64,000 nt of DNA from Candidatus Woesearchaeota archaeon (GTDB lineage: Archaea > Nanobdellota > Nanobdellia > Woesearchaeales > J110): NCBI GenBank assembly GCA_003694805.1, contig RFJU01000131.1, positions 7,976 through 71,975 on the forward strand, read 5' to 3'. Both the position numbers and the translations under genes were made by a program. Within the stretch, counting starts at the first letter, position 1. Every line of letters starts with the position of its first letter. A model generated the notes under the pieces. It made no database searches, was not told the DNA's origin, and saw only the letters and a program-made list of their open reading frames with translations. This document shows, piece by piece, positions 2 to 62,600 of the stretch.

Positions 2-1630
2 TGCTTCCTTGGTCAAGGTGCTGGTTGGGGGATTTGTGGGCTTGATGGTGTTTGTCACGAGGCAGACGTGGAAATCGAGAGCAATGAATCAAGCAATGGC
101 AGCACAGGTTCTTGTGTGGAAGGAGAGGTTGTTCCTTGTGGCTTGAGTGTTGGGGAGTGCAGGCAGGGAACGAGGGTTTGCTTGGGAGGCAGTTTTAGTG
201 CTTGTCGGGGCGAGAAGAAGCCTGCCTTGGTGGATGTTTGCTTTGATGGGTTGGATAATGATTGTGATGGAGTTGTTGATGAGGGGTGTGGCGAGTCTTT
301 GCAGTGTGCCGCTTCCGAAACATGCGGAAACCTTGTTGATGATGATTGTAACGGCGTTATTGATGACGGGTGTGGGTGTCTTGAGTACGAGTTCTGCGCC
401 GATAATTTCGATAATGATTGCGACGGCTTGGCTGACTGCAAAGACCCTGATTGCGCCAGTGATGCCGATTGCGGGGCGCCTTGTCCTCAAGGGCTTCGGA
501 GATGTGGCGATGCGTGTGTTAACATCCAGGAAGACGGAAGAAACTGCGGGGGTTGCGGGGTCGTGTGTGATCCTGGTTCGTTCTGCCAGGACGGTTTTTG
601 TGTTCAGGAACGCGCGTGTTCGGTCGCGTGTAGGAGGGATAGTGACTGCGGCGCTGGCGAGTACTGCTTGCGGAAAGGTTCGTGCGCCGCCACGTGCGAA
701 GCTCGCGTCCCTATCAATGAAGATTTGCACGAGGAGCTTGCTTCCTTGTTTCGTGAAGTTGTTGCTGCAGCAGAGTTGAAGACGTGGGTGGAAGAGGCAG
801 GAAGCCAGTTCGTCGGCGTGGTGAAGTCTCGCTTTGCGTTTCCCTTGTACAACGTGACTGTCGTGATTGACGGGCCTGAAGAGCTCGTTCCGGGTCCGCA
901 GGCCATTCATGGAGGCGTCCTCACGAGGAGGGAGCGGCCTTTTGAAGTGGTGTTGCCTTTCTTTGAGGGGTATGGTGAAGTTCGTGTCGATCCTTTGCTC
1001 TTGGATCCGAGAAGAGTTAACCATGTCGTTTTTTTTGTGAAGGAGAATAAACAGGTTCAAGAGGAAGTCCTTGCAAGCCGTGCTGTCGCGTTGCTGGGCG
1101 AGTATCGCTTGTTCTTGGCGCGAGAAGAGGAGCGAAGAGGGACGAGGGGGACGAGGTTGGTGTTTTCCCTCATCCCGCAAAAGGGAAGAAAACTCTTGGA
1201 CACGTACGCGCTTGTCCGGCTTCCTCCTTGTGTTACGCAGGGCTTGCCCGGCATCGTCTTTGAGGAAGGGAATGTCCAGGCTGTCCGCCAACCCAGCTTG
1301 CATAGCATTTCTTTTGGGGACGTGAGTGGAAGAGAATCAGCTTCGTTATACGTTCCGTTCTTGGTGAGCCAGTCTTGTATTGAGCAGGTGCAAGGAGTCG
1401 TTGTTGCAAGGCGAGTGGTTCGGCGTCCTTGGCTGTTCTGGGTTCCGCCGCTAGCGTTTGCCGTCTTTCTTGTAGGCTTGGGCGTTTTAGAAACGATTCG
1501 GAGGAGGAGGCAGCCGCCGATGCTGAGCGAAGAAGAGTTTAAGCGCTTGGCAAGGAGAAAGGGGAAGCGTGGCGAGGACGTTGAGCGCGCGTGGAGAAAG
1601 TATAGGAATGCGTATAGGAATGCGAGATGA
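2..1630 (+). CDS. Cys-rich surface protein with repeated C-x-DG-x-DNDCDG-x-x-DE motifs (MopE-type putative metal-binding repeat) and a C-terminal TM helix with basic tail; 5' end truncated by window edge
   Basis: ORF 68..1630 stays open to the window start in the same frame. It has at least 4 CxDGxDNDCDGxxD(E/C) motifs and further Cys-x-Cys blocks. A C-terminal hydrophobic segment RPWLFWVPPLAFAVFLVGLGVL is followed by RRRRQ. Confidence 0.6.
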   Translation, partial: CFLGQGAGWGICGLDGVCHEADVEIESNESSNGSTGSCVEGEVVPCGLSVGECRQGTRVCLGGSFSACRGEKKPALVDVCFDGLDNDCDGVVDEGCGESLQCAASETCGNLVDDDCNGVIDDGCGCLEYEFCADNFDNDCDGLADCKDPDCASDADCGAPCPQGLRRCGDACVNIQEDGRNCGGCGVVCDPGSFCQDGFCVQERACSVACRRDSDCGAGEYCLRKGSCAATCEARVPINEDLHEELASLFREVVAAAELKTWVEEAGSQFVGVVKSRFAFPLYNVTVVIDGPEELVPGPQAIHGGVLTRRERPFEVVLPFFEGYGEVRVDPLLLDPRRVNHVVFFVKENKQVQEEVLASRAVALLGEYRLFLAREEERRGTRGTRLVFSLIPQKGRKLLDTYALVRLPPCVTQGLPGIVFEEGNVQAVRQPSLHSISFGDVSGRESASLYVPFLVSQSCIEQVQGVVVARRVVRRPWLFWVPPLAFAVFLVGLGVLETIRRRRQPPMLSEEEFKRLARRKGKRGEDVERAWRKYRNAYRNAR

Positions 1631-16090: not shown

Positions 16091-16128
16091 TATTGCTTTT
16101 GGAAGAAGGCGATGTTTCTTTAAATGAG

Positions 16129-22171: not shown

Positions 22172-22211
22172 CCGGTGCATGTGCTGGTCGCGGAAGAGGC
22201 GTTTGTTCGTT

Positions 22212-22284
22212 GGGGCTGTAGTGTAGCTTGGTATCACTGGCGGTTCGGGGCCGCCCAACCGGGGTTCGAATCCTCGCAGCCCCA
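22212..22284 (+). tRNA. tRNA-Pro(CGG), 73 nt, no encoded CCA
   Basis: GGGGCUG acceptor stem pairs with CAGCCCC. The anticodon stem is GGCGG/CCGCC with loop UUCGGGG. The T-arm is CGGGG-UUCGAAU-CCUCG, and the discriminator is A. Confidence 0.85.
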
Positions 22285-22384
22285 TGTGTTTTTTTCGCTA
22301 GCGTATGATGCTGAACGGGTGCGAGAGGGATCGCGTGTTGGATGTTTGGATGTTGTTTGATGGATGGCGCGTGGGGAGGTAGTA

Positions 22385-38386: not shown

Positions 38387-39621
38387 ATTTTGGCGATGCG
38401 CTCTCGTACACTTCGTCTTTTTTTGGGTTGTACACGTTGATTTTTGTTTTTCTGACGAGTTTGGAGGACGAAGCGGTTCGCAGAGAAAAAGTGTGGAAGA
38501 AGCTTCCGAGAGTTTGTATTGCTGTTCCTTGCTTTAATGAGGAGAAGCGGGTGGGCAGAACGCTTGAGTCCTTGCTTGCTTTAGATTACCCGAAGGACAA
38601 GTTGGAGATCATCGCGGTTGATGACGGGAGCACCGATGGGACGTTGAAGGTGTTGAAACAATTTGAAAAAAGAGGCGTTCGGGTGGTGCACAAAGAGAAC
38701 GGGGGGAAGCACACTGCTCTCAACGTTGCTTTGAGAATGACTTCTGCAGAGTTCTTTGGCGGGTTGGACGCGGATTCTGTAGTTGATCCTAAGGCGTTGA
38801 GAAGAATTTTGCGCAGGTTTTATGCTGATTATGTTATGGCAGTCACGCCGGCCATGAAGATTGAGTCGCCGAATTCTATTTTGCGAAAGGTTCAAAGTGT
38901 TGAGTTTATTGTTGGCATTTTGCTTCGTGAAATATTCACCAAGCTTGGCAGTCAGCATGTAACGCCCGGGCCTTTCACGATTTATCGAAGGGACTTTTTT
39001 GAGAAGTTCGGTCCGTTCAAGAAGGCGCATCTCACCGAGGACATTGAGATTGCTTTGCGCATTCAAAAAAATAATTTTTTTATTGAGAACGCGGTCGATG
39101 CGTACGTGTTCACGCACGGCCCTGCCAAGTTCGCACCGCTTTTCAGGCAGCGATTGCGGTGGTTTTATGGTTATTTGAGTAACGTCCTAGATTATTTTGA
39201 CTTATTAAATCCGAAGAAGTTCGGAAACTTGGGTTTTTTTGTCCTTCCTCAATCGTTTCTTTTTATTGGCTTAATTATCTTAGCTATCGCGTATACAGGC
39301 TTTCGTTTTGTGAAGAACAGCTACACGCAGCTCTTGAATGCGATCGCGGTTCATTTTGACGTGTTGAGGTTGATTCGTTTTAATTTTGAGTGGTTTTTTG
39401 TGAATACGAAGCCGACTATGATTCTTTCCTTGTTTACTTTGGCCGGTTCGTTTTGTATTTTCTTGTTTGCAAGGTTGCTCTCGAGGGATCGAAGACGAAT
39501 AGGCTTTGATTATGCATTGTTTCTTTTGTTGTATTGGTTTTTGTTTGGGTTGTGGTGGGCTGTTGCCGTCTGGCGCAAAGTGTTTCGAATGCCAATCATG
39601 TGGAGTGAAAAGCAGGATTGA
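38383..39621 (+). CDS. Family-2 processive beta-glycosyltransferase (cellulose/chitin/PNAG-synthase-like)
   Basis: Two N-terminal TM segments, then DDGSTDGT and DADSVV (DxD), and QRLRW (Q(Q/R)xRW), followed by C-terminal TM segments. ATGA overlap with the previous gene. Confidence 0.8.
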   Translation: MNFGDALSYTSSFFGLYTLIFVFLTSLEDEAVRREKVWKKLPRVCIAVPCFNEEKRVGRTLESLLALDYPKDKLEIIAVDDGSTDGTLKVLKQFEKRGVRVVHKENGGKHTALNVALRMTSAEFFGGLDADSVVDPKALRRILRRFYADYVMAVTPAMKIESPNSILRKVQSVEFIVGILLREIFTKLGSQHVTPGPFTIYRRDFFEKFGPFKKAHLTEDIEIALRIQKNNFFIENAVDAYVFTHGPAKFAPLFRQRLRWFYGYLSNVLDYFDLLNPKKFGNLGFFVLPQSFLFIGLIILAIAYTGFRFVKNSYTQLLNAIAVHFDVLRLIRFNFEWFFVNTKPTMILSLFTLAGSFCIFLFARLLSRDRRRIGFDYALFLLLYWFLFGLWWAVAVWRKVFRMPIMWSEKQD

Positions 39622-42015: not shown

Positions 42016-42618
42016 TTATAAGCGTTGTTGTTGCAGCTGCTCGTCCTCGCCGTTCTCTTGCGTTGTGTGTTTTCGTGCTCGGGTTTTGGTGAGGGGGAAC
42101 GTCGCGAGGGGGAGGTATTCCGGACCTCGTGGCGTGAGCGTGCTTTGGAAGAGGTGGAACGCATCTACGTCGAAGGTGAGCGGCTTGACGCGTCCTCCAT
42201 GCCATTCGTGAAGGCCCTTGTGGCGCTTGATAACAACGGCGCGAGCTAAGGTAAGGTGGGGGTGGAAGGGCCTGTCTTCTTTGAGGTTCACTGCTTGTGC
42301 CACCTCATTTTGAAGCTTGGAGAGCTGGGCGGACGGAACGATGCCCAGCCAGAAAACGGCCGGCTTGCCTCCTCGCTTGAAAAATCCTCGATGAGACGTG
42401 GTGAGGGTAAAGGGTTCTTGATGTATTCGTTGCAGGGAAGAAATGAGCGTTGGTAGCTCGTCCTTGTTCTTCTCGCCGAGGAAGGCGAGCGTGAGATGTG
42501 CTTTTTTGACTTGAGGGTAGCGGAGAACAGCCCCTTCTACCGAGGCCAGCTTTGCTTGTTCATTGTGTAGGAGTTGTTGAACAGTTTTTGGTAGGGTGAT
42601 GGCTACGAAGAGGCGCAT
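42016..42618 (-). CDS. RNA 2',3'-cyclic phosphodiesterase (LigT/ThpR, 2H family)
   Basis: Two H-x-T-x motifs: HLTLAFLG and HPHLTLARA. Confidence 0.75.
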   Translation of the reverse strand: MRLFVAITLPKTVQQLLHNEQAKLASVEGAVLRYPQVKKAHLTLAFLGEKNKDELPTLISSLQRIHQEPFTLTTSHRGFFKRGGKPAVFWLGIVPSAQLSKLQNEVAQAVNLKEDRPFHPHLTLARAVVIKRHKGLHEWHGGRVKPLTFDVDAFHLFQSTLTPRGPEYLPLATFPLTKTRARKHTTQENGEDEQLQQQRL

Positions 42619-42801
42619 GGAACGGTTTCTTCCGGGTGGCTGAGCAGTTGTTTGTTGGCTTGCTTGCCAAGGCCCTCACGTGAGGACTCGTTGTGGCCGC
42701 CCTTCCTGTGTGGTAAGGTTGGACTGGTTGATGTTGCCAGCTAGTAGGGGAGTGGCCTTCCTTTCTCTCAGAGGAGTTCGAAGAGAGTGTGGAGTGTTGC
42801 T

Positions 42802-43266
42802 TCACTCCTTTTTTTCTTCCGCGTCTTCGGGTGCGGGCACTTCTTCGTCTTCTGCCTCGTCTTGTTTTTCTTGTTCAGACTGCTCGGGTTCGTCTGCGTC
42901 TTCAACGTCTTCGTTGGTGGCAGGTTTTTCGTCTTCAGCGTCTTCTTCCCCGAAGTTTTCACTATCTAAGTGTTCCTGCGGGTCGAAGTCTTCTTCCGGC
43001 TCTTCTTGTGCGGGTTGTTGCTGTTCCTGCTTGGTTTCGCGTTGTTCAGCAGGCCCGAGTACTTCTGTGAAGGCTAAGCTCTTGAGAACGCGCGTGACTT
43101 TGACTTTGACCGAGTCGCCTTGTTTGGCCCCCGGCACGATGAGGACAAAGCCTTCCTTTTTGGCTATGCCGTCGCCTTTCTCGCCGACTGCTTCTATCGT
43201 TACATCTAACTCGTCGCCCTCCCTGACGGGAGCTGCTGGTCTATCGAATCGTTGGTTTCGCATCAT
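42802..43266 (-). CDS. TRAM-domain protein with long acidic C-terminal tail
   Basis: DVTIEAVGEKGDGIAKKEGFVLIVPGAKQGDSVKVKVTRV is a TRAM domain, followed by ~70 aa of E/D/Q-rich tail. Confidence 0.65.
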   Translation of the reverse strand: MMRNQRFDRPAAPVREGDELDVTIEAVGEKGDGIAKKEGFVLIVPGAKQGDSVKVKVTRVLKSLAFTEVLGPAEQRETKQEQQQPAQEEPEEDFDPQEHLDSENFGEEDAEDEKPATNEDVEDADEPEQSEQEKQDEAEDEEVPAPEDAEEKKE

Positions 43267-43457
43267 AGCTTTCTATTCTCCTATCTTCTTTGTAGTGCGT
43301 CTTCCTCTTCTTTGTGAGAAAAAGAGGATTTTACGCTTTGCAAGCCGCAAGAAAGCAGACTATTTAAAACTTGTTGAAAAAAACATGGAAAAAAAATATT
43401 TGCGGCTTTTCTTGCTAAGTCGCTCCCTTGCAAACAAGCGAGGGCCTTGTACGAGTT

Positions 43458-44435
43458 TTAAACGTCTTCTATGCCTTTATCTGTTATTTTGAAGACGCAT
43501 TCGGTGTCTGCAAGGTTGGGTGCGTCAATGAGTTTGGCCACGCGCGTGCCTTTCTTGCCTCTTCGCAAGTAGATGCGGAACGTGCTGTTGTGGGCGACGA
43601 TGTTGCCACCGATGGCTTCTGTCGGGTCGCCGAAGAACTGGTCTGGTTTGTGCATGACTTGATTCGTGACGTAGACGCATAAGTTGTGTTTGTCTGCGAT
43701 TTTGCTGAGCGTGTGCATGTGCTTGTTGAGTTTTTGTTGGCGTTCAGCCAATGTTCCTCTTCCCACGAATTCGGCTCTGAAATGTGCCGTGAGGGAGTCG
43801 ACAATGACGACGCGGACGTTGTTTCCTTGCGCGATGACGTCTTCTATTTTTTCTGCGAGAAGCATTTGATGGTCTGAATTGAATGCCCTTGCTACTTTGA
43901 TGTGTTGAAGAACGTCGTCAGGATCGAGGCCGTGGCCTTGGGCGATTTGCACCGCGCGTTCCGGCCTGAACGTGTTTTCCGTGTCTATGTAGACCGCTAC
44001 GCTTCCGGGTGCTTGTTTTTGGACGAGGACTGCGAGCACGTGTCCGATTTGTGTTTTGCTTGAGCCGTAGGCGCCGAAGCACTCCGTAATGGCTCCTGTT
44101 TCAAAGCCGCCGGCGAGCATGTCGTCGAATGCTTTAGAGCCGACGCTGATTTTCAGGACGGATTCGCGTTTTCTGAGCAGGTCGATGCCTGACTGAAACC
44201 CCATATCAAGGGAGTCTCGTGCTGAGTTAATCATTTTGCGAGCTGCTGCTTCAGTTACGCCTGCTGCGCTGACGAGTTCTCCGGGCGTCGCGACGGCGAT
44301 GGACATGACATCTGAGAACCCTGCGCTGACGAGTTTTTCAGCTGTCGCCGCTCCGACACCGGGGAGGTCTTCGATAAGGAGTTCTTTTTTTGTTTCCATG
44401 ACTATTGCTTCTTGTTTTGTTGGCACAGGTTTCAC
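43458..44435 (-). CDS. radA: DNA repair and recombination protein RadA
   Basis: An N-terminal HhH domain ([12 protein letters not shown]) plus a RecA core ([12 protein letters not shown]). TATA 'aatatttttaaac' lies ~35 nt upstream. Confidence 0.95.
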
Positions 44436-44533
44436 CTCGGGAGTTGTTCTTTGTTTAAAAATATTGGTTTAAAAAAAATAAAACAAAAGAGAATGCCTGC
44501 GTGGCTGCAAGCGTGGCTGCTACGCCTGGCAGA

Positions 44534-44806
44534 TTATGCCACGCCTTCCTCTTTTTGGAGGGCGAGGTACTCATATGCTTTTTGGAGGACGAGCGCTGCT
44601 CGGGGCAGGTCGTTGACGCGCAGAGAGTTTGTGGTTTTCCACATGTCGTTCTTGTCTTTGTAGCTACGTTCGAAGGTCACGGTTGAGTACTCTGTCACGT
44701 TCCCGTTTGTATCGTTGGTTTCGTTGCGCCACACAGTGGCTGTTAATGCGCCCGATCGAAATTTCTTGACGGGCTGGTTTTTTTGGTGGTGTTTGGTTTC
44801 ATTCAT
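44534..44806 (-). CDS. Hypothetical protein (90 aa)
   Basis: Clean ORF upstream of radA with a beta-rich N-terminal half. No motif recognised. Confidence 0.3.
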   Translation of the reverse strand: MNETKHHQKNQPVKKFRSGALTATVWRNETNDTNGNVTEYSTVTFERSYKDKNDMWKTTNSLRVNDLPRAALVLQKAYEYLALQKEEGVA

Positions 44807-45259
44807 GTTGTTCTCCCTCCTTCTTCCTTTCGGTTCTTCTTTCAGCCCACGATCGGCGAGCGCGTTGGGTGTTCGGCTTGCCTCTCCATCACGACGTGCG
44901 GGTTAGGCGCGCCTTTCGCGTCGTCTTCGTGGGTGAAGGAGTGTGTTGGCAGGTGCGGATGGTGGTGTGCATCCGCGATGCTGCCTTTTTGGAAATTCTT
45001 TTTCGGGGGTGTTCGCCACGGCGTCGCGAAACAGTGGTGCGTTCAGCGCCGCTCGCGGCTATCGAAAGAAGGAGTGGTCGGGAGGCTATTTATACGCCAC
45101 GGGAGCGTGCCCAGTGTGTCCAGTGCGGCCTTTGCTGTTTCTCCGCAGTGCCTTCTACACTCCGTGGAGACCTTGTTTGGAGAAGGTGTGCTTGAGCGCG
45201 AAGGAAACCCAAAAGGGAGAGGTTATTTTTGGCCCTTCAGTGAGCGTGTCTGCCGCGTG

Positions 45260-45625
45260 TCAGCCCTCTGTGCCGGTGCGTTGCTCCCGCATTGCTTGCT
45301 CAAGGAGTAGCTTTTCAATTCCTTGGCGAACGCTGGGGGGCATCTTGTCACCGTTTTTTTCGAGTGCTCGGAGGGCGAGGAGTTGTTCAAGGCCAACAGG
45401 GATGCAGACGGCGTTGGGATTGAGGGACGCGCCGGCTCCTGCAGCGGCGCCGCCCTGGAGCGCAACTGCGTGTATGTCTTCAGCTCCCCCGTAAATAATA
45501 ACGTTGGTCGCCTCGCTTCGATCGCAGAAGATGTAGCATTGATCCTGGTAGAAGAGGAGGGAAGGGTTGCTTTCTTTTGGGCCGTCTTTTGCTGCGTCGT
45601 AGGGTCTGATGTAGTGTCGCTCCAT
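45260..45625 (-). CDS. Hypothetical protein (121 aa)
   Basis: The helical C-terminal part looks protein-like. The competing plus-strand ORF 45323..45757 looks like junk. Confidence 0.3.
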   Translation of the reverse strand: MERHYIRPYDAAKDGPKESNPSLLFYQDQCYIFCDRSEATNVIIYGGAEDIHAVALQGGAAAGAGASLNPNAVCIPVGLEQLLALRALEKNGDKMPPSVRQGIEKLLLEQAMREQRTGTEG

Positions 45626-45814
45626 TTGTTGCCAGGGGTTGCCGCTCGGGTTTGGTTGCTGTTGTGTCTTGGCGCCTTTGAGGTAGGTACTAGCGTTTCT
45701 TCGTGCTTTTCCTATTTATATTTTTCTCCTCGTTGTACTTGTTCGGCCTTAAACTGACGCTTTTCTGGAGTGGGGTGTGGACGGGTTGATCAGTCAGTAG
45801 AAGAGGGGTGGTTT

Positions 45815-46378
45815 TCAAGAGGTGTGGTGGCGTTTCCACTTGATGCTGCAGCCTTGGCTGGGAAGGAAGGGTTTGGTTACCTTGCCTTTTGCGAGGAGTT
45901 CTTGGATTGCTTCGTCCATGTCGTGCTGTCTGGGGACCTGGCCGGGGCTGAGTGCGTCATCGATTCTGCCGTGCCACGCCAGTTTTTTTGCTCGATCAAG
46001 CAGGAAGGGGTCCGGGGTGCAGACGGCGCCGTACGCTCGCGCAACGTCTTGGGTTTCGTCAAAGAGGTAGGGGAAGTTCAGAGCGTGTGCGCGGGCAAAC
46101 CGCTGCATGTTATCGAAGCTGTCGTCTGGGACGATGCCTGGGTCGTTGCTGTTGATGCCGATGAGGAGGACGCCTTTATCCTTGTACGTATCTTGGAGGG
46201 TTTTGAGGGTTTCGATTTTGGGGAGGACGTAGGGGCAGTGGTTGCAGATGAAGATGATGAGGAACGCGTTGCCTTCGAGCTCGCTGAGCGTGTAGGTTTT
46301 TCCGTCGACGCCTTTGAGGGAGAAGTCCGGTGCCTTCTCGCCGATGGCAAGTTTTTGTTGCGATTGGAGGAGTACCAT
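45815..46378 (-). CDS. Thioredoxin-fold redoxin (TlpA/AhpC-TSA-like thiol-disulfide oxidoreductase)
   Basis: [36 protein letters not shown] carries the CxxC motif on a typical redoxin fold. Confidence 0.7.
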
Positions 46379-46492
46379 GGTAGCAAGCAGGTTGTGTCGT
46401 TCTGGTCCTTGCTGGCCGTGGTGTTTAATAAAGGTTTCCCAGGCGCCGCGGGAGAAACATTTATAAACCCTTTTTGTTGGTCTCGTCTTGTA

Positions 46493-49400
46493 ATGGTAGG
46501 GGTGAGTTTTCGTTCGCTTCAGAGGGTGCCGCTCTTGGTGGTGTTCTTTGCTCTCGTGCTAGTCCTTGGAGGGGGTTTGTTCGCTTTTTTGGCACTCGCC
46601 AGGCCTACTTCGTGCGAGCCTGTTTGTGATGCGTTTGATGTTTGTACGAGTGGCACAAGCCCGGGTCCTTGCGAGGCGAGTTCATGTGCTCCTGGTGAGA
46701 CGTGTTTAGAAAAGTACTGCAGTGGCTGTTCTGGAGCGACCGATCCTACGTCTCCTTCCTGCACAGGGGGCGTGTTTCACTCGTGTGAGCCAGCGTGTAG
46801 CTCGTGGGATGTGAACAGCGCGGGCGTTTGTTGCGGGGATGATCCTGGCGAGGCGGGGCCGTTTTCCGAGCCGGAAGGGGCTGACGTGTCGTATTGTTTT
46901 GATGGGAACGATAATGATTGTAACGGATATGTTGATTGCGATGATACTGCTTGCTTCGGCGCGAGTGCCGATGTTGAGTTCACGGATACGGGGTCGTCGT
47001 GGGTCGCGCCGGGAGGAATGGTTCCGTACAGTGATGGCAATACGGGTCGCGTTGATAATACGCCGTGCGATGCGTACGATATCGGGGCGAAGCAGGCGTA
47101 TTTCCTGGCGTCGGAGGGTGTGCGCTACGACGCGACGTGGGAGAGAAAAGATGAAACATGCGAGAAAAGAGTTCTGGGTGAATGGACTGACGTAGGAACA
47201 AATTCATTTTGCAAGACGCATATTGTTGATGAAGGCGGCAGCGAGGTTGCGACCATTGAAACGCAGACGGGGTGCCCGACAGGCTCAAGTGTGCGAAACC
47301 CAAAAGATGAGTGGCACGACCAAGGCGACGCGACGGTGGATTGGCATCATTTGGAGACGAGGTCGTGTCCTTCCTGCTCTCCTGCTAGCGAGATTTGCGA
47401 CTACGCAGATAATGACTGTGATAACGAGGTGGATGAGGGGTTCAACGCAGGGGATAGTTGTGGCGGTCCGGGATGTGTTCTTGACTGTCTCAGCGATGGT
47501 TCCGGGACGCAGTGCGTGCTCAACACGACGTGGGCACCGCCGGACGCGACCGAGACGAATTGTGGTGACGGCATTGACAACGACTGCGACGGGAGTCTTG
47601 ACTGTGCAGATAGTGACTGCGACTACCAGGTAGTGCCTAAGTCGTCAACAGGTGAGACGTGGACGCCGCCTGCAGGGAATACGGGATGGGTGCGAGTGAA
47701 GTACACGGAGAGGGGAGTCGCGCATGAAATTTTTTACGCGAGTGTTGATGCTACGAAAACGTACGCGTCTGAACTTGATCGTTCCTGCCAGCAAGTGAAG
47801 TGCGACCCGGGGCCTCCCCTTGCTCAGTACGGCTTGAGTGGTAGGCAAAACCTCTTCTTGGTTGAGGACGGGGCGGATGTTGCTTCAGATAGATCGCTTT
47901 GTCGGTGTGAGGGCTTTGCTTCCGAAGCGGGGTGCGAGGATGGGCAGATGTGCACTTCAAGTTCTGATGGGCAAGCAAGAACGCGTGTCGATGCAACGTG
48001 GGAATGGGAGGAGGAAGTTGGCGATCCGGGTTGCGGGTCGTGCTCGGCTGAAGTGTGTGATGGTCTTGACAACGATTGTGATGGCGTTGTGGACAACGGT
48101 TTTGATCCTGAATCATGCAGACCGCTCTGCGAGTATCAGGGTTTTCAGTGGACGAACAATGGGGGCTCGTTAAATTGTTGTGGGAACGATGCGGGCGAGG
48201 ATAATCCCTTCGAGGGTGTTGAGTCATTGTGTTTTGACGGAAATGACAACGACTGCGATGGCAACATTGATTGTAACGACAATGACTGCGCCGGGTTTGG
48301 TGGAACGTCGGTGGAGAATAGCGTGTCCGGGCGGGATTCATGGTCTGCCCCTGGCAATGTCTCGAACCTCGCCCGGGCGGAGCAGTCTTCGGGGAGCAGC
48401 TTGGTTGAGTTCGCGCCGCGTGGCGGTGAAACGTACAACACCGTTATTCGTACGAAGACGAGTATTGTGCCTGTGACATTTGGCTCGTGCGGTGGCAGCG
48501 CGGGAGTGGGCAGCGTTGGGTGCGCGCCTTACGAGCAGCAGTTCTATGAAGTGCGCGACTCGTTAGGTAACGTGATCGGGACAGATCGCGTCGGGGAAAC
48601 GTGCAGAGCATCGTGTGGTACGGCTTTCGGTGCTGACAGTTGTGGAAGCCATATTCCGGGGTGTGAATCGCAGGCTGGCGAGTCTGAGAGTGATGAGTTG
48701 TCTGACTGGACGTGGGAAGAATCAGCGGGGGACGCGTGTTCTTGCGAAGACAATGATGGTGACGGCGTGAACGCCACGGGAGGGTCGTGCGGCCCTATTG
48801 ACTGCGACGACAACGACGCCAGCGTCAGCTCGACCATCACGTGCACGGACTACAACACCTGCACCGACACGAGCATGTGCACCACGTCCTGCCCTGCAGC
48901 GCCCGCCGAGATTTGCGATGACGGCGTTGACAACGACTGCGACGGGTTGGCTGATTGTCGTGATAGTGATTGTGCCGGTCCGGACAACGATGGTGATTTG
49001 TACTTTTCCTCTTCAAGCAGTTCTGCTTGCCCCGTGGATTGCAACGATTCGGACCCGAACAACTATCCGGGGAACGTCGAGGTTTGCAGTGACGGGGCGG
49101 ATAACGACTGTGATGGCTTCGTTGACGAGGCGGACAGCGCGTGCGTGATTAATTTGACGCTTGCGCCGAGCCCTGCCAACCCTGCAACGACGGTGACTGC
49201 GACGGTTGAGGCGTTCGATGGCGTGTTCCAGACGGGCTCGTACCGGGTGAGCGTGTGCGATTATCAAGGATGTGACCTGAGCGATCCGACCGGGTGCGTG
49301 GCGGGGAGTGCTATTGATCCGAGCTGCGATCGCCTGGACGCGAACGGCCTTGCGAGTGTGGCGTGTTCGTTCACTGCGCCGGGAATCGGGGCGGGTTACG

Positions 49401-52018
49401 GTTATTACGCGTGCGTTGGCGAAAATGCGGATCAGGAGCTCTTGGATGTTGTTGGTGGGGGGCATTGTGGCCTTGGCAGTTCCCACGCTGAGGATGATGA
49501 GGTCTCTCCTGCCGAGTTCTTTCACGAGTGCGACGCGTCGGAGGAGGGGGGTGATTGTTCGGGCGTGACGGATTGCAATTCGTATAATTATTCTTCGTGC
49601 TCGTCGTGCAGGGTGGAGAGCAGTTCCGGCTCGAGCAGGCTGTATTTCTCGTGTGATGATTACTGGTGTAGCGGCCTTGAGGCGGATAGCTCTGCAGGGT
49701 GCCAGGATTCAGGAAGCGACTGGTTCCCTCTTGACGAGGTTTGTGACCTTGTCCGCGCTAATGATTCTTCTGCAGGTCCTGCGTTGGGGCGGGGCTTTTG
49801 TGGGTATAACTGGTGCAGCCCGCCTTCAGAGAACGTGGCGTATCTTTGTCACGTGAACGCGTCGGGCTCGCCGGTGTGGACGCCGAATGCGTCTTTGCCC
49901 TTGACAGCTGAGGCTGGCGTTCTTGGTGGCGATGCTCAGTGTAGTGACGGGTTCGATAACGACTGTGATGGGCTTATTGACTGCGATGATGATGGGTGCG
50001 ATTGTGAGGGAGATAATAATCAGGTGACATGCGAAGATTTGGGTTTTCAGTGGGATGCTTCGCGGTCTCCTCCTGAGCGGCGGTGCTGTGGGGATGAGCA
50101 GAATGCGTCATGGCATGAGGACGACCCGTTCGGCGTTAGCGAGGCGGGGCTTTGCGGTGATGGGCGTGATAATGATTGTGATAATGAGAATGATTGGGAT
50201 ACGCTTGATCGTGACACGGGCGATGGGTGGGATAGCGCGGGGGTTCACGGGGACAACGATTGTGCGGTGAGCATTGTACGTTTCTCGGCGCCTAATTCCT
50301 CAGAGGCGGGAACGCCCTTTGTCGTGAATTGTACCGTGAACAGCCCCGGAGAGTTCAACAGCGTTCACGTCGTGCTTGACGAGAATGAGGATGGCGAGTT
50401 TAACCTCTCAAAAGGGGACGTGCTCTGCCCGTTCATGCAGTGGCTTGCCGCGACCCCCACCGTCGCGCAGTTCAATTGCTCGTCCTCGTTGCCGAGTGGT
50501 TCGTATGCGAGGACGCAGTGCTTCGTGAACACCAGCAGGAGTTACGACGCGACGGGGCCGCTTCAGAACAGCACACTCCTGACCGGTTGTTTTGACAACG
50601 ATGGTGACGGGTACCAAGGGTATGATCCTTTAGGATGCCCGAGCGGCGATGATTGTAACGATGCTGATGTGAGCGTTCACCCGGGAGGTTTGGAGATTTG
50701 CGAGGATGGTGTTGATAGCAACTGCAACGGGAATGATGATGAGGCGTGTCCGTTGCCCCTTGTTTTCCGTGTTGATTTCGAGACGAATGTGTTCGATACG
50801 GCGCCGACGTGGGAGCCGTTCAACGTGAGTGATTACGGAGCGGTGCCGGGTTGGTGGTACGGGTGGCAAGACAGCGTGGGCGACGGAGTCACGAGCAGTG
50901 ACGCTTCCTTGCCCGTGTGGGGGTCTTTGCTTGGCGACCACCATGATGTGAATGGTGTTTGGGATGCTGACGTTCCTGAGAAGACAGGCTATACTGTGAA
51001 CGTGTATACTGGCGACGCGTCTCTTGATTCTGGTTTGTTTGATGTGTATGCTGAAGGCTTCTTGAAGTTATTTGATGTGCAGAGCGGGGCGGGAGAGTAC
51101 AAAGTGGAAACGTTTGAAACGAATGTGACTGACGGCACGCTCTCCTTGCAGTTTGTCGTGAATGGCGATCGCGGGCTCGTGAGTGGCGTGGAGGTGTTCT
51201 ACACGGCGTGTGACTTTGACATGGACGAGGATAATCACTCTGGCGCCTCATGTGGCGGGAATGATTGTGATGATACAAACCCGTTCCGTTCGAGCTTGAG
51301 TACGAACCCGTACTGTGATTGTAATGACGCCGCGCCGTACCAAGACGTGCAGAGCGAGTCTGCGTTCGGGTGTGATGGCATTGACAATGATTGCGATGGA
51401 GAGGTTGATGAAGGCGTTGGCGGTTGCTTTGGAACGTTGGAAGGGTATGTTTTGAATCAGTTTGGTGTCGGGATTGAGCAAGCACTGGTTACTGCACAAA
51501 AGCAAGGCGTTCCCGATAGGAATACTGAGAGTGATGTTAGCGGGTTTTATTCCATGTCACTTTCGTCCGGGAACTACGTCGCGAGTGCACGCAAGTTCGG
51601 GTTCATGCCTGACACTGCACCGGTAAGTATCGTGACGGGTTCGACAACCTATCAGAACTTTACGTTGTTGAATGGGTCGTGCACGGCTGATTGCACGAAT
51701 TGGGAGGGGCGCTGTGACACGTCGTGTGAGGGGTATGTTGATCCCGCAACCGGGGACACGTGCCATTTCTATGATGAGAAAGTAGAGGCGCTCTGCGAAG
51801 GCAAGCTTCTTGGAACGGATGTGTTTTACGGTACGGGGAGTGATGATCGTGATTTGTTTGTGACGTGTTGTGAGGGAGGCCCTGGCGGTGGCGCGCCGCG
51901 GGAGTTGAGGCGCCCGCTTCTCGATGTTGAGGGCAATATGAAGCACTTGGTGAGAAGAACGATTACGTCAAGGTGCGGGGCTCAGCCGTGCAAGGTTATT
52001 GTTTTCACGTGGGAGTAA
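46493..52018 (+). CDS. Giant (~1840 aa) Cys-rich surface protein: N-terminal signal anchor, ~11 DNDCDG-type putative metal-binding repeats, C-terminal carboxypeptidase-regulatory-like beta-sandwich
   Basis: Start set at [36 protein letters not shown], because the upstream in-frame extension is antisense to the redoxin gene. Repeated C(F/G/S)DG(x)DNDC(D/N)G(x)(V/I/L)D(C/E) motifs. The C-terminus is [23 protein letters not shown]...[19 protein letters not shown] (CarboxypepD_reg-like). Confidence 0.8.
47578..51410 (+). repeat. Dispersed intragenic DNA repeats (~30-35 nt, 'gacaacgactgcgacgg...') encoding the DNDCDG motifs
   Basis: Copies near 47578, 48067, 48241, 48925, 49096, 49951 and 51373. 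They are coding, not CRISPR: spacing is irregular and units are imperfect. Confidence 0.6.
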
Positions 52019-56541: not shown

Positions 56542-56862
56542 TTATAGGTTGGCCTCGATGAATTGTTTGAGTTCTGCTTCGGGGCGCATTCCCACGCTTT
56601 TTGCGACTGGTTCGCCGTTCTTAATGATGAAGAGGGTGGGTATGCCTTGGACGCCGAAGGTTTGCGGGAGGCTTTGTTCTTCATCTACATTGCACTTGGC
56701 AAACTTCATTTTGCCTGCGTATTCTTCGCTGAGTTTCTCAAAGACTGGAGCCATCATTTTGCAGGGGCCGCACCAGGGCGCCCAGAAGTCGATGATGACG
56801 GGCTTGTCGCTGTTTTTGACTTCTTGTTCGTAATTTTCCGCGGTTAAGTTGACGATTGCCAT
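56542..56862 (-). CDS. trxA: Thioredoxin
   Basis: The WCGPC active site is in context (IIDFWAPWCGPCKMMAPVFEKL). AAGGAGG SD and TATA 'gcatttaaaaag' upstream. Confidence 0.9.
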   Translation of the reverse strand: MAIVNLTAENYEQEVKNSDKPVIIDFWAPWCGPCKMMAPVFEKLSEEYAGKMKFAKCNVDEEQSLPQTFGVQGIPTLFIIKNGEPVAKSVGMRPEAELKQFIEANL

Positions 56863-57027
56863 TGGGGTTTGTTCCTCCTTTTTCTCTTGGGTTGCGGGGT
56901 TTCACCCTGCTTTTTTTGAATAAACCCTTCTTTCTTTTTAAATGCTTCTTTAAACAGCTCAAAACTGCTCTTTTTTTGCAGGACTGCAGGGGCGGGTCTT
57001 TTGCTTCCGTTTTGCGTTGTGCGGATG

Positions 57028-58251: not shown

Positions 58252-59469
58252 TTAGTCGAGATCTTCTAAGTCTTCCAGGCTGAGAAGGTCTTCTTCAAAG
58301 GCTTCTTCGTCCTCTTCTTGTTGTGTCGTTGGGGAAGGAGCGTCGGCGGATGTGTCCTTGGCGGTGTTTATTTGCTCTGCCTCGATGTTTTCCGGGTTCT
58401 CTACTTCGGCTTCATTGGCTGCTTCCTGGTCGAGTCCGCTCGGTTTTTCTTGAGGGCCTGCCTCGTTGCTTGCGCTCCTTTCTTGTTCTGCTTCGATGAG
58501 GGCGAGTTCTTCTTTGGGAGACACGTTGGGGAAGACGAGGTTCGCGACGAACTCTGTTCGGTCAAACATGGTGTTGTGTTGCGCTTTTCCAACAAGTTTG
58601 ATGATGGTGCCGAGAAGGTCGGTCTTGACAGCTTCGAACTCGTGGGGGGCTTCTTTGTAGGCAAGGATTTCTTCGTGGGTTTTGCCGAGGAGTTTTTGGA
58701 CTTGGTTTTGCCAGAGAACGACTTGCATATTCGCGGTTCCGTCATCGAGGTAGAGGTTGAGGACGTAGCTCGTGTTGGGCGTGATGGGTCCGTGCACGTC
58801 GCACACGGCGCCTTTGGCGTCTGCTCTGACACGCTTGCCGCATTGAGGGCACTTGTCGAAGAATCGGGGGCTGAATACTTGGACGATGGTGCCGAGTACT
58901 TCGACTTGCTCTTCTCCGGGCGTGAGTTCGCCGAGGTGTTTGCGCTTTGGCTTTTGGATGATGTCGTCGGGGTTGACGTTGAGTGGGTTGATGGTTAGCG
59001 TGCTTGAGTCGCTAAGGTGGACTTCTGCCCTGCCGTTATTGTCTCGTACGGTGGCGCCTTTGATGAGCACGACGGTTCCTTCGTGGAGCTGGTTGAGGTG
59101 GTCTGCTTGCTTGTTCCAGAGGACGACCCGGGTCGTTCCTGTTCCGTCGTTGAGAATGAAGTTCGCTACTTTCCCTTCTTTCCCGTCTTTGTTGAAGGTT
59201 CGTTGTTCGAACACGCGTGAAACCTTTCCGAGAAGTTCTACGGCGCGCATGCCTGGGAGGAGGTCTTTGATGGAGAGTTTTCCCCGCGGGGGTACTTCAA
59301 TGACTTTGACGCCGAGTTCGTTGGCTATGATGTGCGCTGCGCCTTCTTTGGAGATGAGGCCGCTGAGTTGGTCGAGCTTTTCTTTAATGCGTTCCTCAAG
59401 CTCTTCTCGCGATATGCCTTGCTGCTCCTGTATTTTTTGGAGAATGGTTTCGTAGGGTACTTCAATCAT
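58252..59469 (-). CDS. rpa: Replication protein A (RPA)-like ssDNA-binding protein with OB folds, Zn ribbon and acidic C-terminal tail
   Basis: N-terminus MIEVPYETILQKIQEQQGISREELEERIKEKLDQLSGLISKEGAAHIIANELGV, as in euryarchaeal RPA41. Zn ribbon CPQCGKRV...CDVH. C-terminus DLLSLEDLEDLD. Confidence 0.75.
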   Translation of the reverse strand: MIEVPYETILQKIQEQQGISREELEERIKEKLDQLSGLISKEGAAHIIANELGVKVIEVPPRGKLSIKDLLPGMRAVELLGKVSRVFEQRTFNKDGKEGKVANFILNDGTGTTRVVLWNKQADHLNQLHEGTVVLIKGATVRDNNGRAEVHLSDSSTLTINPLNVNPDDIIQKPKRKHLGELTPGEEQVEVLGTIVQVFSPRFFDKCPQCGKRVRADAKGAVCDVHGPITPNTSYVLNLYLDDGTANMQVVLWQNQVQKLLGKTHEEILAYKEAPHEFEAVKTDLLGTIIKLVGKAQHNTMFDRTEFVANLVFPNVSPKEELALIEAEQERSASNEAGPQEKPSGLDQEAANEAEVENPENIEAEQINTAKDTSADAPSPTTQQEEDEEAFEEDLLSLEDLEDLD

Positions 59470-59623: not shown

Positions 59624-62600
59624 TTATTGCGTGCATTCGAGGGGTTCTGGCTGGAAGAGCGAGGTGTTTTGTTGGATGATGTGGTCGGGGGTTTTCCACT
59701 GGTTCTGACCTTTAGGAGGCAGGTAGAGGGCGAAGGGGATTCTCACAGGGGGTGTTGCGAGCGTTGTGTTTTGGCAAACGTAGGGTATGGGCTCTGCGAG
59801 AGGAAGCTCTGCACAGAAGGTGTAGTAGCGTTTTTCTTGATTACAGAGCGGTATTGCTCCTTGTTTTTGTGTGTTGTTAAGGAGTGTTTCGTCGAGGATT
59901 TCGCCGGTGACGTAGTCAAAGAAGGCGCCTTGGGGGTTTTGGAAGATGCCAAGGTATTGGCTTCCTTGCTCACAAAAGGGGGAGGCGAACTTGTCCAAGA
60001 CGTTGCCGACGCCGAGTGCTCCGGCAAAATTTGCTAGGGATCCGATGCCGCTTTGGCTTGCTGCTTGGTCTTTGTTGCATGCGTTGAGTTGTTGGAGGAG
60101 CGTGATGGTCGGGTGTTGCGTGTTAGGAAGGAATTTTCCGAGCACGTAGCGTGGCGTGGAGTTTTTGTAGAGGAGGAGTGTCGGGTACGGGTCTCTGAGG
60201 GTTCTTGTGTTGTTGCTTGCAAGGTCTTGTGCGGCGAGGAAGGGTTCTGGCGTGGAGGCGTTTATGGTGCTCCAAAGGGTGGCTTCTTTGAGGTTTGGTC
60301 TTTGTGTTTCGTCTTCTGCGTTGGCGAATTGGGTTGTGAGGGCGACATCGTAGATGATTGTTGTTTTGTTGATGAGTTGGACGTGGCCGTCCGGGGTGAG
60401 TCGTATGGCTGTGCCTGGTGGAGGGGGCGGGAGGCGTGTTGTTTGCGGGTCGCAGAGGCAGCCTTGGTTTGGCTGGGCGTGGCAGTCCGCAAGCGCTTCC
60501 ACGACCGTGGCGAAGGCGGAGAGGCGGTCGTTGTTCGGGCAAGCGCCTCTTGTTATTGTTCCTGGGCCTTGGTAGTGGTTGATCCTGTCTTCAACGCAGG
60601 ATTGGATGTTTGCGCCGTTCTCTGTTGCACAGCGCTCCGTTGTTGCTTTCGCCCAGGCAATAAGGGAGGTGAAGCTGGTGAAGTTGAAGGGGAGGGTGGT
60701 TGTTGCGTTGGGTACGAAGGTCAAGGTGCCGAAGACTCGTTCGGACGGCGTTGGCGGGGTTTTCTTGGTTGGATCTTGCGTGGCGAGGAGGGCGTCTCCC
60801 CCCCATGCGGAGAGGTAGGCCATGACTTTTTCTACGTAGTCGGGGTCGCCGACGGTTTTTCCGTTTCTTTCGCAGTACCAGCCGTTGTAGCCGCGCAGAG
60901 TGGCTTGCCAGCCTGTGTAGGTGAGCCACTTGTCGTGGTTGGGGTTGCCGCGTGGGCAGTACTGTTGGGCTTTGCTCTTGCTGATGCCGTTCGAGAAGAT
61001 GTTTCGTTTTTGTTTCAGGATGGCTACGCCGCAGCAGATGTTTTTTTGGACATCGAAGAGTTCTTCGGGGGTGGTGATTTTGCATGCTTGCTGGCATTCG
61101 GGGAGTGATTTATCGTTTATCATCATGAGGCCTCGGTCCGTAGAATCTTTATTGTACCCTATGGCGTTCTTGTCGCCTTTGCTTTCTACAGTGATGATGG
61201 CGAGGACGAGGCTGGCGGGGAGGTCGGTGAAGTCGTGCAGGGTTTTTGCGTTCTCAATTGCGTTTAGAATGGTATTCATGCCGATGGCTTCAAGGTTCTT
61301 CTTGGTTGCTTCAAAGTTTTTTTGCTGGGAGGGGGTGAGGAGCTGTCTGGCTTGAGTGGTGCTGATGCCTTGGGAGAGGGCTGCTTGCGGCGCGGTTGGG
61401 AATGCGAGGGTGTTGATGGTGTGTTTGTTCCAGTACGGTGCGCATTCTTGGGCAAGGACGGGGTCGTCGGGGCTGATGCTGTAGGGGTTTTTGCTGTACT
61501 TAGCGCAGCTGCGCGCGCTGGCTCCTCTTTGTAATCGTTTGAATTCTTCGGGTTTGAGAAAGCAGAGGGGGTTGACGCCTTTGTCCGTTGCGGGCCCTGT
61601 TTGGGGGAGGTAGATGCTCCAGTGAAGGTGTTTTGCTTCGGAGTACCCGGTGTTGCCGACTTTTCCAACGAGGGCGGTGATTTCTTTGTGAAGGGGTGTG
61701 TCGCCTTTGTTGACGTTGTAGACGACGTCGTCGAGGTGGGCAAAGCGGGTGTAGAGGCCGTTGTCGTGTTTGGCGATGAGGGTGTTTCCGTAGCCGGTGC
61801 CATAGTCTGCGCATTTGTTTCGGCACGTTCGGGGGCAGGTGGTGTCGACGAGGGTGCAGTGGCAGGCATTGTTCCAATCGCCGCAGGAGTAGATGATGTC
61901 TGCGCTTGCTGGGAGGATGACGTTGTCTTCATTGTTAATGCCTGTTGCTGGATCTTTGAAGGGCATGCCGATGAGGTCGATGCCGTCGTGGAAGTCTCGT
62001 TGCCCGTTTTGGAGTGTTCGCTCGCCCCAGCAGGACGTGATAATAATTTTCCTTCCTGGGAGGGGCAAGAGGAGTGTTCGTATTGCAGTTGGATCTGCTG
62101 CGGGCGACGCTTCGAGTTGGTTGGCGAGGGTGATGGGGAGGTTGATGGTGTCGTTTCCTTCGAGGAGGAGGGTGAGAGGGTCGTCGTTTAGTTTTTTGAG
62201 GTTGTACGGGACGGCGCCAATGGCAGGGTGGGTGATGAGTGCCGTGTCGAGAAGGGGTTGGAGGGCGGTGGTAAGTGCGGGTAGCGGGTTCGGGTAGCAC
62301 TCTTTGCCAGGGGCGGTCCAGAGTGGTACGAGGTAGGTTCCGCACGTCGTGTTGCGTGGTGTGAGGCTCGCGTTTGCTGTGTTGAAGAGGGCTTCTTGTG
62401 CTGTGAGGGTGAGTGCGCGCGTTAAGTAGTGGCGGAGGAGGCCTTCTTCTTGGATGGTGGCGGAGAGCGCGCTTTGCCTGAGGCCGAGGTACTCGTTGGT
62501 CGGGTTGGTGAATTTGCCAAGGACTAGGCCGAAGAGGAGGGCTACTGCGACGATGACGGTGATGTAGATGAAGAGGGGTATGAGGGGGATGGCGTCGCTG

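Follow-up and report, generated by a model that had tools for sequence, protein, structure and literature searches.

The 64-kb stretch of archaeal DNA analysed here (positions 1-64000, hereafter the window, to which coordinates refer unless stated otherwise) carries on its plus strand the gene for a giant cysteine-rich protein, which we call p1 (46493-52018; Table 1), and the end of a gene for a second one, p2 (2-1630). We argue that p1 is probably an exported, heavily disulfide-bonded, Ca2+-binding modular cell-surface protein of a Woesearchaeales archaeon. Its 1,841 residues include 132 Cys (7.2%) and 326 acidic against 74 basic residues (D+E vs K+R), with a net charge of about -250.

In the mechanism that we propose, a Sec-type signal at the N-terminus, which would be cleaved after ALA or else kept as an anchor, would move the chain to the outside of the cell, where essentially all 132 Cys would be structural and could form up to ~66 disulfides. 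The 11 DNDC units of p1, together with four loops of the DxDxDG type, would chelate Ca2+ in the manner of the teneurin C-rich domain or of thrombospondin type-3 repeats; calcium loading would make the linkers between the beta-rich modules rigid and protease-resistant, and the ectodomain of ~1,800 residues would form an extended stalk. A C-terminal cassette, consisting of an acidic unit, a transthyretin-like (TTR) sandwich and an eight-cysteine (8-Cys) domain, would most likely dock p1 to the envelope or to a partner, and the whole would mediate adhesion to other cells or surfaces, or contact with them. DPANN archaea are generally regarded as episymbiotic, their contact proteins are almost entirely uncharacterised, and p1 (~190 kDa, predicted to be exported, with a Ca2+-type repeat and the cassette) is a concrete candidate for one of them.

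Modules of p1 and its C-terminal cassette

Exactly 11 D[NDS][DN]C[DN][GN] cores are present in p1 (residues 140, 306, 362, 526, 585, 813, 870, 1155, 1226, 1408 and 1631), where 20,000 shuffled versions of the protein averaged 0.018 cores and had at most 2. A preliminary description of this DNA had counted at least 11 such units among many Cys and had named a MopE-type motif and a CarboxypepD_reg domain; a Pfam search bears out both families (PF11617 Cu-binding_MopE, 80.2 bits, E=1.2e-22, cut-off 27, six stretches; PF13620 CarboxypepD_reg, residues 1648-1725, 38.6 bits vs cut-off 32.3, E=1.4e-9), and the NCBIfam 'acidic double-disulfide repeat' (NF033662) is matched as well (45.3 bits vs cut-off 41). 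Two types of acidic unit can be told apart: type A, ExxCxDGxDNDCDGxxDCxDxDC, which occurs five times in p1 and once in p2, and type B, C.DG.DNDCDG..DEG, which often follows DxDxDG...DC(N/D)D....P...E and represents the classical MopE/myxobacterial repeat. Its repeats place p1 in a very large, widespread and already known MopE-related/PF11617 class: an exhaustive search returned 4,056 cluster representatives at E<=1e-3, those that are named coming mostly from Myxococcota, Acidobacteriota, Nitrospirota and Patescibacteria and some from archaea, and NCBI names two of the cassette-bearing relatives introduced below 'MopE-related protein [archaeon]'.

Comparison of p1 with itself revealed three divergent super-modules (residues 97-330, 331-552 and 553-790), each composed of a CCG(D/N)D...PF motif, an acidic unit and a ~140-residue 'X' module that starts with SW.APG and ends with W.WEE. 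Ten isolated non-repeat segments gave no Pfam family above threshold, the sub-threshold hints being AGA-YXIM_GBD (PF21254, E=0.013), DUF5726 and DUF3830, and a single-sequence AlphaFold2 model of residues 1258-1841 was unusable (predicted local distance difference test, pLDDT, 36.7). Word-indexed searches had provisionally suggested that p1 was an orphan, the full-length query yielding only repeat-driven matches that covered at most 37% of it and a repeat-masked query yielding none. This reading was overturned by an exhaustive HMMER search, which returned an ortholog (P0121), the GenBank fragment of p1 itself (P0122) and about a dozen others whose match is confined to the last ~200 residues of p1. 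Also related is P0002, a protein of 1,858 residues that has in common with p1, at 28-35% identity, an X module, the CCGDD motif, the DWD-plus-beta-rich module and the cassette, so that the whole architecture of p1, beyond its repeats, has relatives.

We define the cassette family by a CarboxypepD_reg domain followed by a ~115-residue 8-Cys domain at the C-terminus, together with an N-terminal signal sequence, all of which p1 displays. In two 13-protein alignments (A2 and A4), eight Cys are invariant and the terminal ...PVK..V..W is followed by 0-6 residues before the stop in all proteins, the consensus of the domain being NFTL.NG.C..DC....G.C...C.G....C.FY....C.G...G...YN....V.CCEG....G.M..L.....PVK..V..W-end. 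A word-indexed search with the cassette profile recovered 6 proteins only; a scan with a 3-sequence alignment added a 14th member at one locus, on a 173-kb archaeal contig from the Joint Genome Institute (JGI), and a JGI metagenome scan with a single-protein query found nothing. The family comprises at least 14 DPANN proteins, whose named sources are Woesearchaeota, Nanoarchaeota or simply 'archaeon'. Cassette proteins are 285-1,858 residues long and vary in what lies upstream, and most have an acidic Cys unit directly before the sandwich.

With the 13-sequence alignment, AlphaFold2 produced a two-domain model of the TTR and 8-Cys domains at pLDDT 85.5, in which the residues matched by PF13620 (1648-1725) show the seven-strand beta-sandwich of a transthyretin-like fold. 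Searches of PDB folds with this model were dominated by the TTR domain, the teneurin TTR domain being among the matches. None of the PDB fold matches reaches over the 8-Cys domain, and the profile of that domain found no PDB sequence at E<=10 and no Pfam family. Measured against the libraries and literature searched, the DPANN-restricted TTR plus 8-Cys cassette is new, as are the X modules, the teneurin-type Ca2+ assignment of archaeal units and the under-annotation of the gene, both of which are described below.

Export of p1 is inferred because its sole hydrophobic segment is N-terminal (residues ~4-39 in a Kyte-Doolittle scan, in line with the N-terminal signal anchor already ascribed to this ~1840-aa ORF, or open reading frame), because nearly all full-length cassette members have a signal-peptide-like start and no other transmembrane (TM) segment, and because N-x-S/T sequons are in excess (21 vs 14.8 ± 3.4 expected). 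A class III (prepilin-like) signal was rejected by inspection, no [KRDE][GA] standing ahead of the hydrophobic core. There is no C-terminal hydrophobic segment in p1 and thus no sorting signal of the PGF-CTERM/archaeosortase type, with its motif, TM helix and basic tail.

We favour the C-terminus as the attachment end, since an invariant cassette joined to passengers that differ is what one expects of a docking or sorting module. It is conceivable, if doubtful, that the cassette is a DPANN-specific counterpart of dockerin or of the C-terminal domain of the type IX secretion system, which would display variable passengers on the surface of the symbiont, the Ca2+-stiffened stalk of p1 among them, and which in relatives would act together with type IV filament machinery and VKOR-driven oxidative folding. 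If so, the teneurin pair of C-rich unit and TTR domain would, as a corollary, descend from such prokaryotic surface proteins; the origin proposed for it so far is an algal enzyme (PMC3278476). At one locus (L085, 7901-11268(+)), the gene for the cassette member P0198 lies in a tight same-strand run into T2SSE and two T2SSF genes, which belong to type IV filament machinery. A role of p1 in adhesion is suggested by its architecture, by the Big_1 and Invasin_D3 domains that occur in other PF11617 proteins with type-A units, by the filament run at P0198 and by the episymbiosis generally ascribed to DPANN archaea.

Alternatively, p1 and the cassette family could be building blocks of the envelope, acting as a component of the surface layer (S-layer) or associated with it and not as adhesins. 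A large, very acidic, sequon-rich protein that is predicted to be exported and has its sole TM-like segment at the N-terminus would suit this role, and Ca2+-dependent assembly is common in S-layers. We nevertheless think it unlikely, because the gene position is not conserved (a survey of 80 Woesearchaeales loci, 1.18 Mb in total, found no p1 or p2 homolog within 10 kb of RadA), and because a family of such uneven length, with differing passengers, is unlike a lattice-forming protein.

Quite unlikely, in our estimation, is an arrangement as in teneurins, in which p1 would be an N-terminally anchored type II fibre and the TTR plus 8-Cys cassette its distal, ligand-binding head. The N-terminus of p1 consists of a basic n-region, a 25-residue hydrophobic core and then ALA↓RP; such a core is long for a cleaved signal peptide and would speak for anchoring by the N-terminus, the C-terminus then forming the tip, and teneurins are type II proteins in which an acidic C-rich unit is likewise followed by a TTR domain (PMC9058538). 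However, the signal peptides of most cassette relatives are short and classical, with AxA-like sites (VSA↓A, AFA↓A, AHA↓A), and would be expected to be cleaved, and, by analogy, a constant C-terminal cassette is usually a sorting or anchoring module and not a binding head.

Calcium and copper

Whether the acidic units of p1 would hold copper or calcium had been left undecided in the preliminary description; the calcium half of that proposal is the one that gains support here. A PDB-wide search with p1 returned only residues 11-51 of MopE* (E=4.5e-4) and the teneurin-4 C-rich domain (E=0.035), and a profile of six type-A units run against 177,635 PDB sequences gave 13 distinct matches, all of them teneurins (best E=3.5e-6). 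The 1.5 Å structure of the teneurin-4 C-rich domain (PDB 7PLP/7BAM) contains three fully coordinated Ca2+, held by E835, D840, D843, N844, D845, D847, D851, D854 and D856 and by three backbone carbonyls; two of the sites are thrombospondin type-3-like and one is LDLR-A-like, and calcium removal destabilises the protein (PMC9058538). In register with teneurin, the p1 units at 362 and 585 keep all eight acidic ligand positions along with the equivalent of Asn844, and those at p1 813, p1 1155 and p2 residue 137 keep seven of the eight.

In MopE, the Cu(I) site is formed by His132, His203 and a kynurenine derived from Trp130, all within the beta-core domain, and the crystal structure of MopE* does not resolve its first 46 residues (PMC3423442). 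Ca2+, for its part, stabilises both MopE and CorA (PMC3423442, PMC3912023). With profile matches confined to teneurins, ligands conserved and the copper site of MopE located elsewhere, Ca2+ is the supported reading and copper is not, and the units of p1 may be read, on the strength of their ligand conservation, as Ca2+-binding double-disulfide mini-domains. It is very improbable that the repeats bind copper and that p1 scavenges or buffers it outside the cell in the way of MopE and CorA: the Pfam name of the family and a hint from immobilised metal affinity chromatography (IMAC), which implicated the first 24 residues of MopE* in weak (micromolar) Cu(II) binding (PMC3423442), speak for this, but the alignment with p1 is limited to a MopE* segment that is disordered or absent in the crystal, p1 lacks the beta-core with the high-affinity Cu(I) site and has only 1.1% His, and its units match a structurally proven Ca2+ site. 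The label 'Cu-binding' is without structural basis for the PF11617 motif, the IMAC result being its sole link to copper. It has been propagated to thousands of proteins, for which the sequence evidence gathered here would point to a teneurin/thrombospondin type-3 Ca2+ motif, copper binding by the motif never having been seen.

An intact gene with conserved cysteines

The gene encoding p1 is real and not a pseudogene. The maximal ORF that contains it extends over 45770-52018(+) (2,082 codons), and its 5' 723 nt are antisense to the AhpC/TSA-Redoxin gene. Since this is a genuine gene on the opposite strand, the 5' extension is spurious and was rightly excluded in the preliminary description. The redoxin gene is a neighbour of p1, which does not imply a functional partnership. 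The spacing of the TATA-like box TTTATAAA is that expected for an archaeal TATA box and a leaderless or near-leaderless mRNA, making it a putative promoter element.

An independent Logan assembly of a public run contains the same 2,082-codon ORF with a single Glu/Gln substitution, the two assemblies thus concurring on an uninterrupted frame. The frame has also been kept in P0121 (NJL44161.1), which is 46% identical to p1 residues 877-1840 (E=3.2e-240), whose contig continues downstream with DUF1858-IscA and then VTT/DedA genes in the same order as the window, and whose own frame runs past the contig start, for which reason we regard it as a truncated ortholog. The frameshifts or stops that would have marked a pseudogene are thereby answered in part, at the level of assemblies and ortholog and not of reads. 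Between p1 and P0121, 57 of 58 aligned Cys are identical, as compared with 46% of residues overall and 18-35% of Ser, Thr, Lys, Leu and Glu, which indicates strong purifying selection on structural cysteines.

In GenBank the annotation is confined to the final 240 codons of p1, which begin with a TTG start and are called a 'hypothetical protein' (RME52462.1, D6783_04985, 51296-52018(+)). This product spans 13% of p1 and leaves 1,601 upstream codons outside. Exact look-up found neither the 1,841-aa p1 product nor that of the redoxin neighbour on record, and a 40-mer from the p1 gene was absent from GTDB representative genomes. Large surface proteins of such metagenome-assembled genomes (MAGs) may be systematically under-called. 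That the long ORF is a by-product of a G+T-rich strand or a decaying pseudogene, as extreme strand asymmetry, many overlapping >150-aa ORFs on both strands and the mere 240 aa of the NCBI call might suggest, is effectively refuted already by Pfam and NCBIfam domains distributed over the whole length of p1, an ortholog that matches over 965 residues with 98% Cys conservation, the alignment of P0002 with N-terminal, central and C-terminal modules, a frame intact in an independent assembly and a TATA box correctly spaced from the start codon.

From the size and Cys density of such proteins the preliminary description had deduced an oxidising extracellular compartment, with which it found the DsbA-like, redoxin and thioredoxin genes of the window to agree. 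Of this, the compartment fares better than the enzymes. The cysteine conservation and a VKOR gene near the cassette member P0180 lend independent support to extracytoplasmic disulfide formation; the VKOR gene lies in another archaeon (locus L084, 6883-7299(+), 29.2 bits vs cut-off 27.5), two genes upstream of P0180. In the window, however, neither thioredoxin (WCGPC, 56545-56901(-)) nor the AhpC/TSA redoxin has a signal peptide or TM segment, so that both look cytoplasmic, and 'DsbA-like' is unconfirmed for the CPSC protein (9441-10202(-)), the only candidate extracytoplasmic thiol-disulfide oxidoreductase to judge from its TM anchor and thioredoxin-fold-like context, which lies 36 kb from p1 and scores below threshold for Glutaredoxin (17.4 bits vs 22.9). 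Proteins in three related loci (L012, L043 and L056) match the CPSC protein at 41-43% identity, and the CPSC gene adjoins one for a PMT_2-like glycosyltransferase (7994-9514). Linkage of thioredoxin, AhpC/TSA or CPSC genes to RadA was seen in 0 of 80 related loci. How and where disulfides form in a predicted exported protein with near-perfect Cys conservation, in a lineage that is usually anoxic, is a question for which the VKOR gene near P0180 provides a lead.

Several observations weigh against p1 as an exported, disulfide-bonded, Ca2+-binding adhesin, among them the length of its hydrophobic core discussed above. The type-B units keep only 5-6 of the eight ligand positions. The four Cys of the type-A unit are C1, an extra one at teneurin Gly846, and those at 852 and 857, and the unit is without the conotoxin-like CC....C.....C tail of teneurins and hence without their 1-3, 2-5 and 4-6 disulfides; with the extra Cys and the missing tail, the disulfide topology, and possibly the third Ca2+ site, may differ from teneurin. 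Many Woesearchaeota live anoxically, and the window has no recognisable disulfide-forming enzyme, there being no VKOR homolog in its 64 kb and the CPSC protein falling below threshold. The lack of homologs near RadA in 80 relatives indicates that the p1 gene is lineage-restricted, and its neighbours (IscA, VTT/DedA, a helix-turn-helix (HTH) regulator and TPR) are uninformative on adhesion.

Genomic setting and known systems

The host is a Woesearchaeales (DPANN) archaeon, as befits the archaeal origin assumed at the outset: the window encodes RadA, a thermosome subunit, tRNA-splicing endonuclease, Fen1 and a proteasome-activating ATPase, its RadA is 80% identical to that of a Candidatus Woesearchaeota MAG, and the 80 best genomic matches all come from Woesearchaeota/Nanoarchaeota-type MAGs, some of them deposited as 'Methanosarcinales'. 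Synteny with all or many relatives extends to the gene for a small protein (44534-44806), to RadA and to LigT. The distance from the small-protein/RadA pair to an RPA-like gene is 2-3 kb in 47 relatives and ~14 kb in the window (58252-59469), a displacement which indicates that the ~45-58 kb block with p1 is lineage-specific at this position. Between ~44806 and 58252 this block contains redoxin, p1, IscA, VTT, an HFX_2341-like HTH gene, TPR and thioredoxin.

The second Cys-rich protein, p2, was correctly described as open at the window edge, ending at 1630 and carrying a TM segment with a basic tail; 'second copy' did not hold, for only repeats (three units) are common to both proteins. BLAST similarity to p1 is limited to the first ~228 residues of p2, which scores 35.7 bits for PF11617 (E=1e-8) and, below the cut-off, 25.4 bits for NF033662. 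It differs from p1 in having neither CarboxypepD_reg nor the C-terminal module and in its predicted anchorage by a C-terminal TM helix; despite this helix and the basic tail, no PGF-CTERM-type model of NCBIfam matched.

Over the whole window the GC skew is +0.24 and the AT skew -0.22, every 2-kb bin being positive for GC skew (0.09-0.40) independently of gene orientation, and minus-strand genes have coding-strand skews of -0.1 to -0.4. As the skew does not switch, neither an origin nor a terminus is expected within the window, and the strand asymmetry gives rise to many long spurious ORFs. The contig that carries the ortholog (L082; JAAUVG010000053.1, GCA_012030845.1; 5.4 kb with P0121, IscA-DUF1858, VTT and TPR) has skews of 0.26/-0.24, the median absolute GC skew of the 82 fetched loci (80 Woesearchaeales RadA loci) being 0.08. 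It was deposited as 'Nitrosarchaeum sp.' and is probably mis-binned, since it agrees with the Woesearchaeal window in synteny, GC content (56%) and strand skew.

Other features of the window touch on the cell surface or stand apart. The gene at 59624-62644(-) encodes 1,005 residues, with a TM segment at the N-terminus and with Peptidase_M23 and lytic transglycosylase (SLT) domains, a peptidoglycan-degrading pair that, in an archaeon, hints at interaction with bacterial cells. Three consecutive genes at 35484-39621(+), two of them family-less with hydrophobic N-termini and the third a family-2 glycosyltransferase, may constitute a surface-glycan cluster, one that could serve p1 with its many sequons. 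A second, divergent Rad51/RecA-family protein, RadB-like (PF08423, E=1.9e-24), is encoded at 15422-16561(-), besides RadA at 43458-44435, and DNA gyrase subunit A lies at 18222-20741. ARAGORN predicts a tRNA-Pro(CGG) at 22211-22285(+); Rfam at gathering thresholds gave no family in the whole window, tRNA included. The ~1 kb between the small gene and redoxin (44807-45814) holds only overlapping ORFs on both strands, with no family match and no Rfam match at E<=0.1, and no Rfam family was found in 42500-45900. In 23 relatives, tblastn gives short high-identity matches downstream of RadA to a 270-aa ORF with 6.7% Cys (42680-43492(+)); the opposite-strand ORF 42802-43266(-) is probably the gene that is really conserved there.

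Table 1. Positions of p1, p2, their predicted parts and adjoining features in the window (residue numbers are those of the respective protein)
Feature	Position	Strand	Remarks
p2, C-terminal 542 aa visible	2..1630	+	open from window edge; 37 Cys, three DNDC cores
p2, three DNDC units, residues 76-157	227..472	+	third is type A, 7/8 ligand positions
p2, single TM helix, residues ~476-499	1427..1498	+	followed by Arg/Lys-rich tail to 1627, predicted cytoplasmic
AhpC/TSA-Redoxin gene	45815..46378	-	PF00578 E=1.9e-25; transcribed divergently from p1; no signal peptide
TATA-like box TTTATAAA	46460..46467	+	25 nt before ATG 46493; read from sequence
p1 gene	46493..52018	+	1,841 codons + stop
Signal segment, residues 1-37	46493..46603	+	Sec signal peptide or uncleaved signal anchor, predicted by hydropathy
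N-terminal Cys-rich stretch, residues 38-112	46604..46828	+	11 Cys; no Pfam match
CCGDD...PF motif and type-A unit 1, residues 113-156	46829..46960	+	
X module 1, residues 157-297	46961..47383	+	from internal repeat analysis, SW.APG to W.W/H.E; no Pfam match; homologous modules in P0002
Type-B (MopE-type) unit, residues 298-326	47384..47470	+	
Type-A unit 2, residues 352-381	47546..47635	+	8/8 acidic ligand positions of teneurin-4 C-rich domain
X module 2, residues 382-516	47636..48040	+	internal repeats; P0002 homology
Type-B unit, residues 517-546	48041..48130	+	
GFQW...CCGND...PF motif and type-A unit 3, residues 547-603	48131..48301	+	8/8 ligand positions
X module 3, residues 604-744	48302..48724	+	P0002 32% identical over residues 572-878
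Tandem MopE-type region, residues 745-893	48725..49171	+	two DNDGDG loops, type-A unit 4, one type-B unit
Beta-rich domain 1, residues 894-1000	49172..49492	+	also in P0136, P0121, P0166, P0214 (phmmer); no Pfam match
Cys-rich region, residues 1001-1145	49493..49927	+	12 Cys; no Pfam match
Residues 1146-1262	49928..50278	+	type-A unit 5, GFQW...CCGDE motif, DNDC unit, 'DWD..DR..GDG' acidic motif
Beta-rich domain 2, residues 1263-1365	50279..50587	+	also in P0121; twice in P0002
Full MopE-type unit, residues 1366-1421	50588..50755	+	best Pfam stretch; part that aligns to MopE* residues 11-51
Cys-free beta-rich domain, residues 1422-1571	50756..51205	+	weak galactose-binding-like hint (PF21254, E=0.013, below threshold); conserved in P0121
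MopE-type unit, residues 1572-1647	51206..51433	+	directly abuts CarboxypepD_reg domain
CarboxypepD_reg/transthyretin-like beta-sandwich, residues 1648-1725	51434..51667	+	
Terminal 8-Cys domain, residues 1726-1841	51668..52015	+	8 invariant Cys in 13-protein alignments

Of the known systems, teneurins resemble p1 in both acidic unit and domain order. The teneurin core ExxCx(D/N)xxDx(D/E)xDxxxDCxxx(D/E)C matches the p1 type-A unit in register, its resemblance to PF11617 having been noted already in 2012 (PMC3278476), and the order of the teneurin pair, with an acidic Cys unit just ahead of a transthyretin-like domain, recurs in p1 and the cassette family. The C-rich unit of teneurins is single, whereas that of p1 is repeated many times, and the EGF, NHL, YD-shell and toxin domains of teneurins are all missing from p1: a Pfam scan found no EGF or toxin domain and, at E<=0.1, no NHL, YD-shell or RHS-core family, and p1 ends 116 residues past its TTR-like domain. 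Thrombospondin type-3 repeats resemble the p1 units in their Asp-rich DxDxDG-type loops, which are pinned by disulfides, wrap Ca2+ and have little secondary structure, and differ from them in spacing and Cys pattern; TSP_3 (PF02412) gave no match in p1 at E<=0.1, while some other PF11617 proteins carry it. MopE has the motif in the ~40-residue N-terminal segment of MopE*, but the copper-binding beta-core of MopE and CorA, with its two His and kynurenine, is missing from p1, which therefore does not belong with them.

The SPEARE proteins of nanohaloarchaea are very large exported proteins of small-genome, host-associated archaea and are thought to mediate host contact; compared with p1 by description only, they have protease, adhesion and nuclease domains and not acidic Cys repeats. 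The members of the PF11617/NF033662 class are like p1 in combining 1,000-3,000 residues, 5-9% Cys and 10-26 DNDCDG cores with interspersed beta-sandwich domains. Unlike them, p1 has three X modules, the CCGDD motif, two beta-rich domains and the terminal 8-Cys domain, which are common only to a small DPANN set, and unlike most named members it comes from a Woesearchaeales archaeon. That a DPANN genome should encode a large surface protein with acidic Cys repeats is in itself unsurprising, and it is the cassette family that provides a handle on DPANN surface biology.

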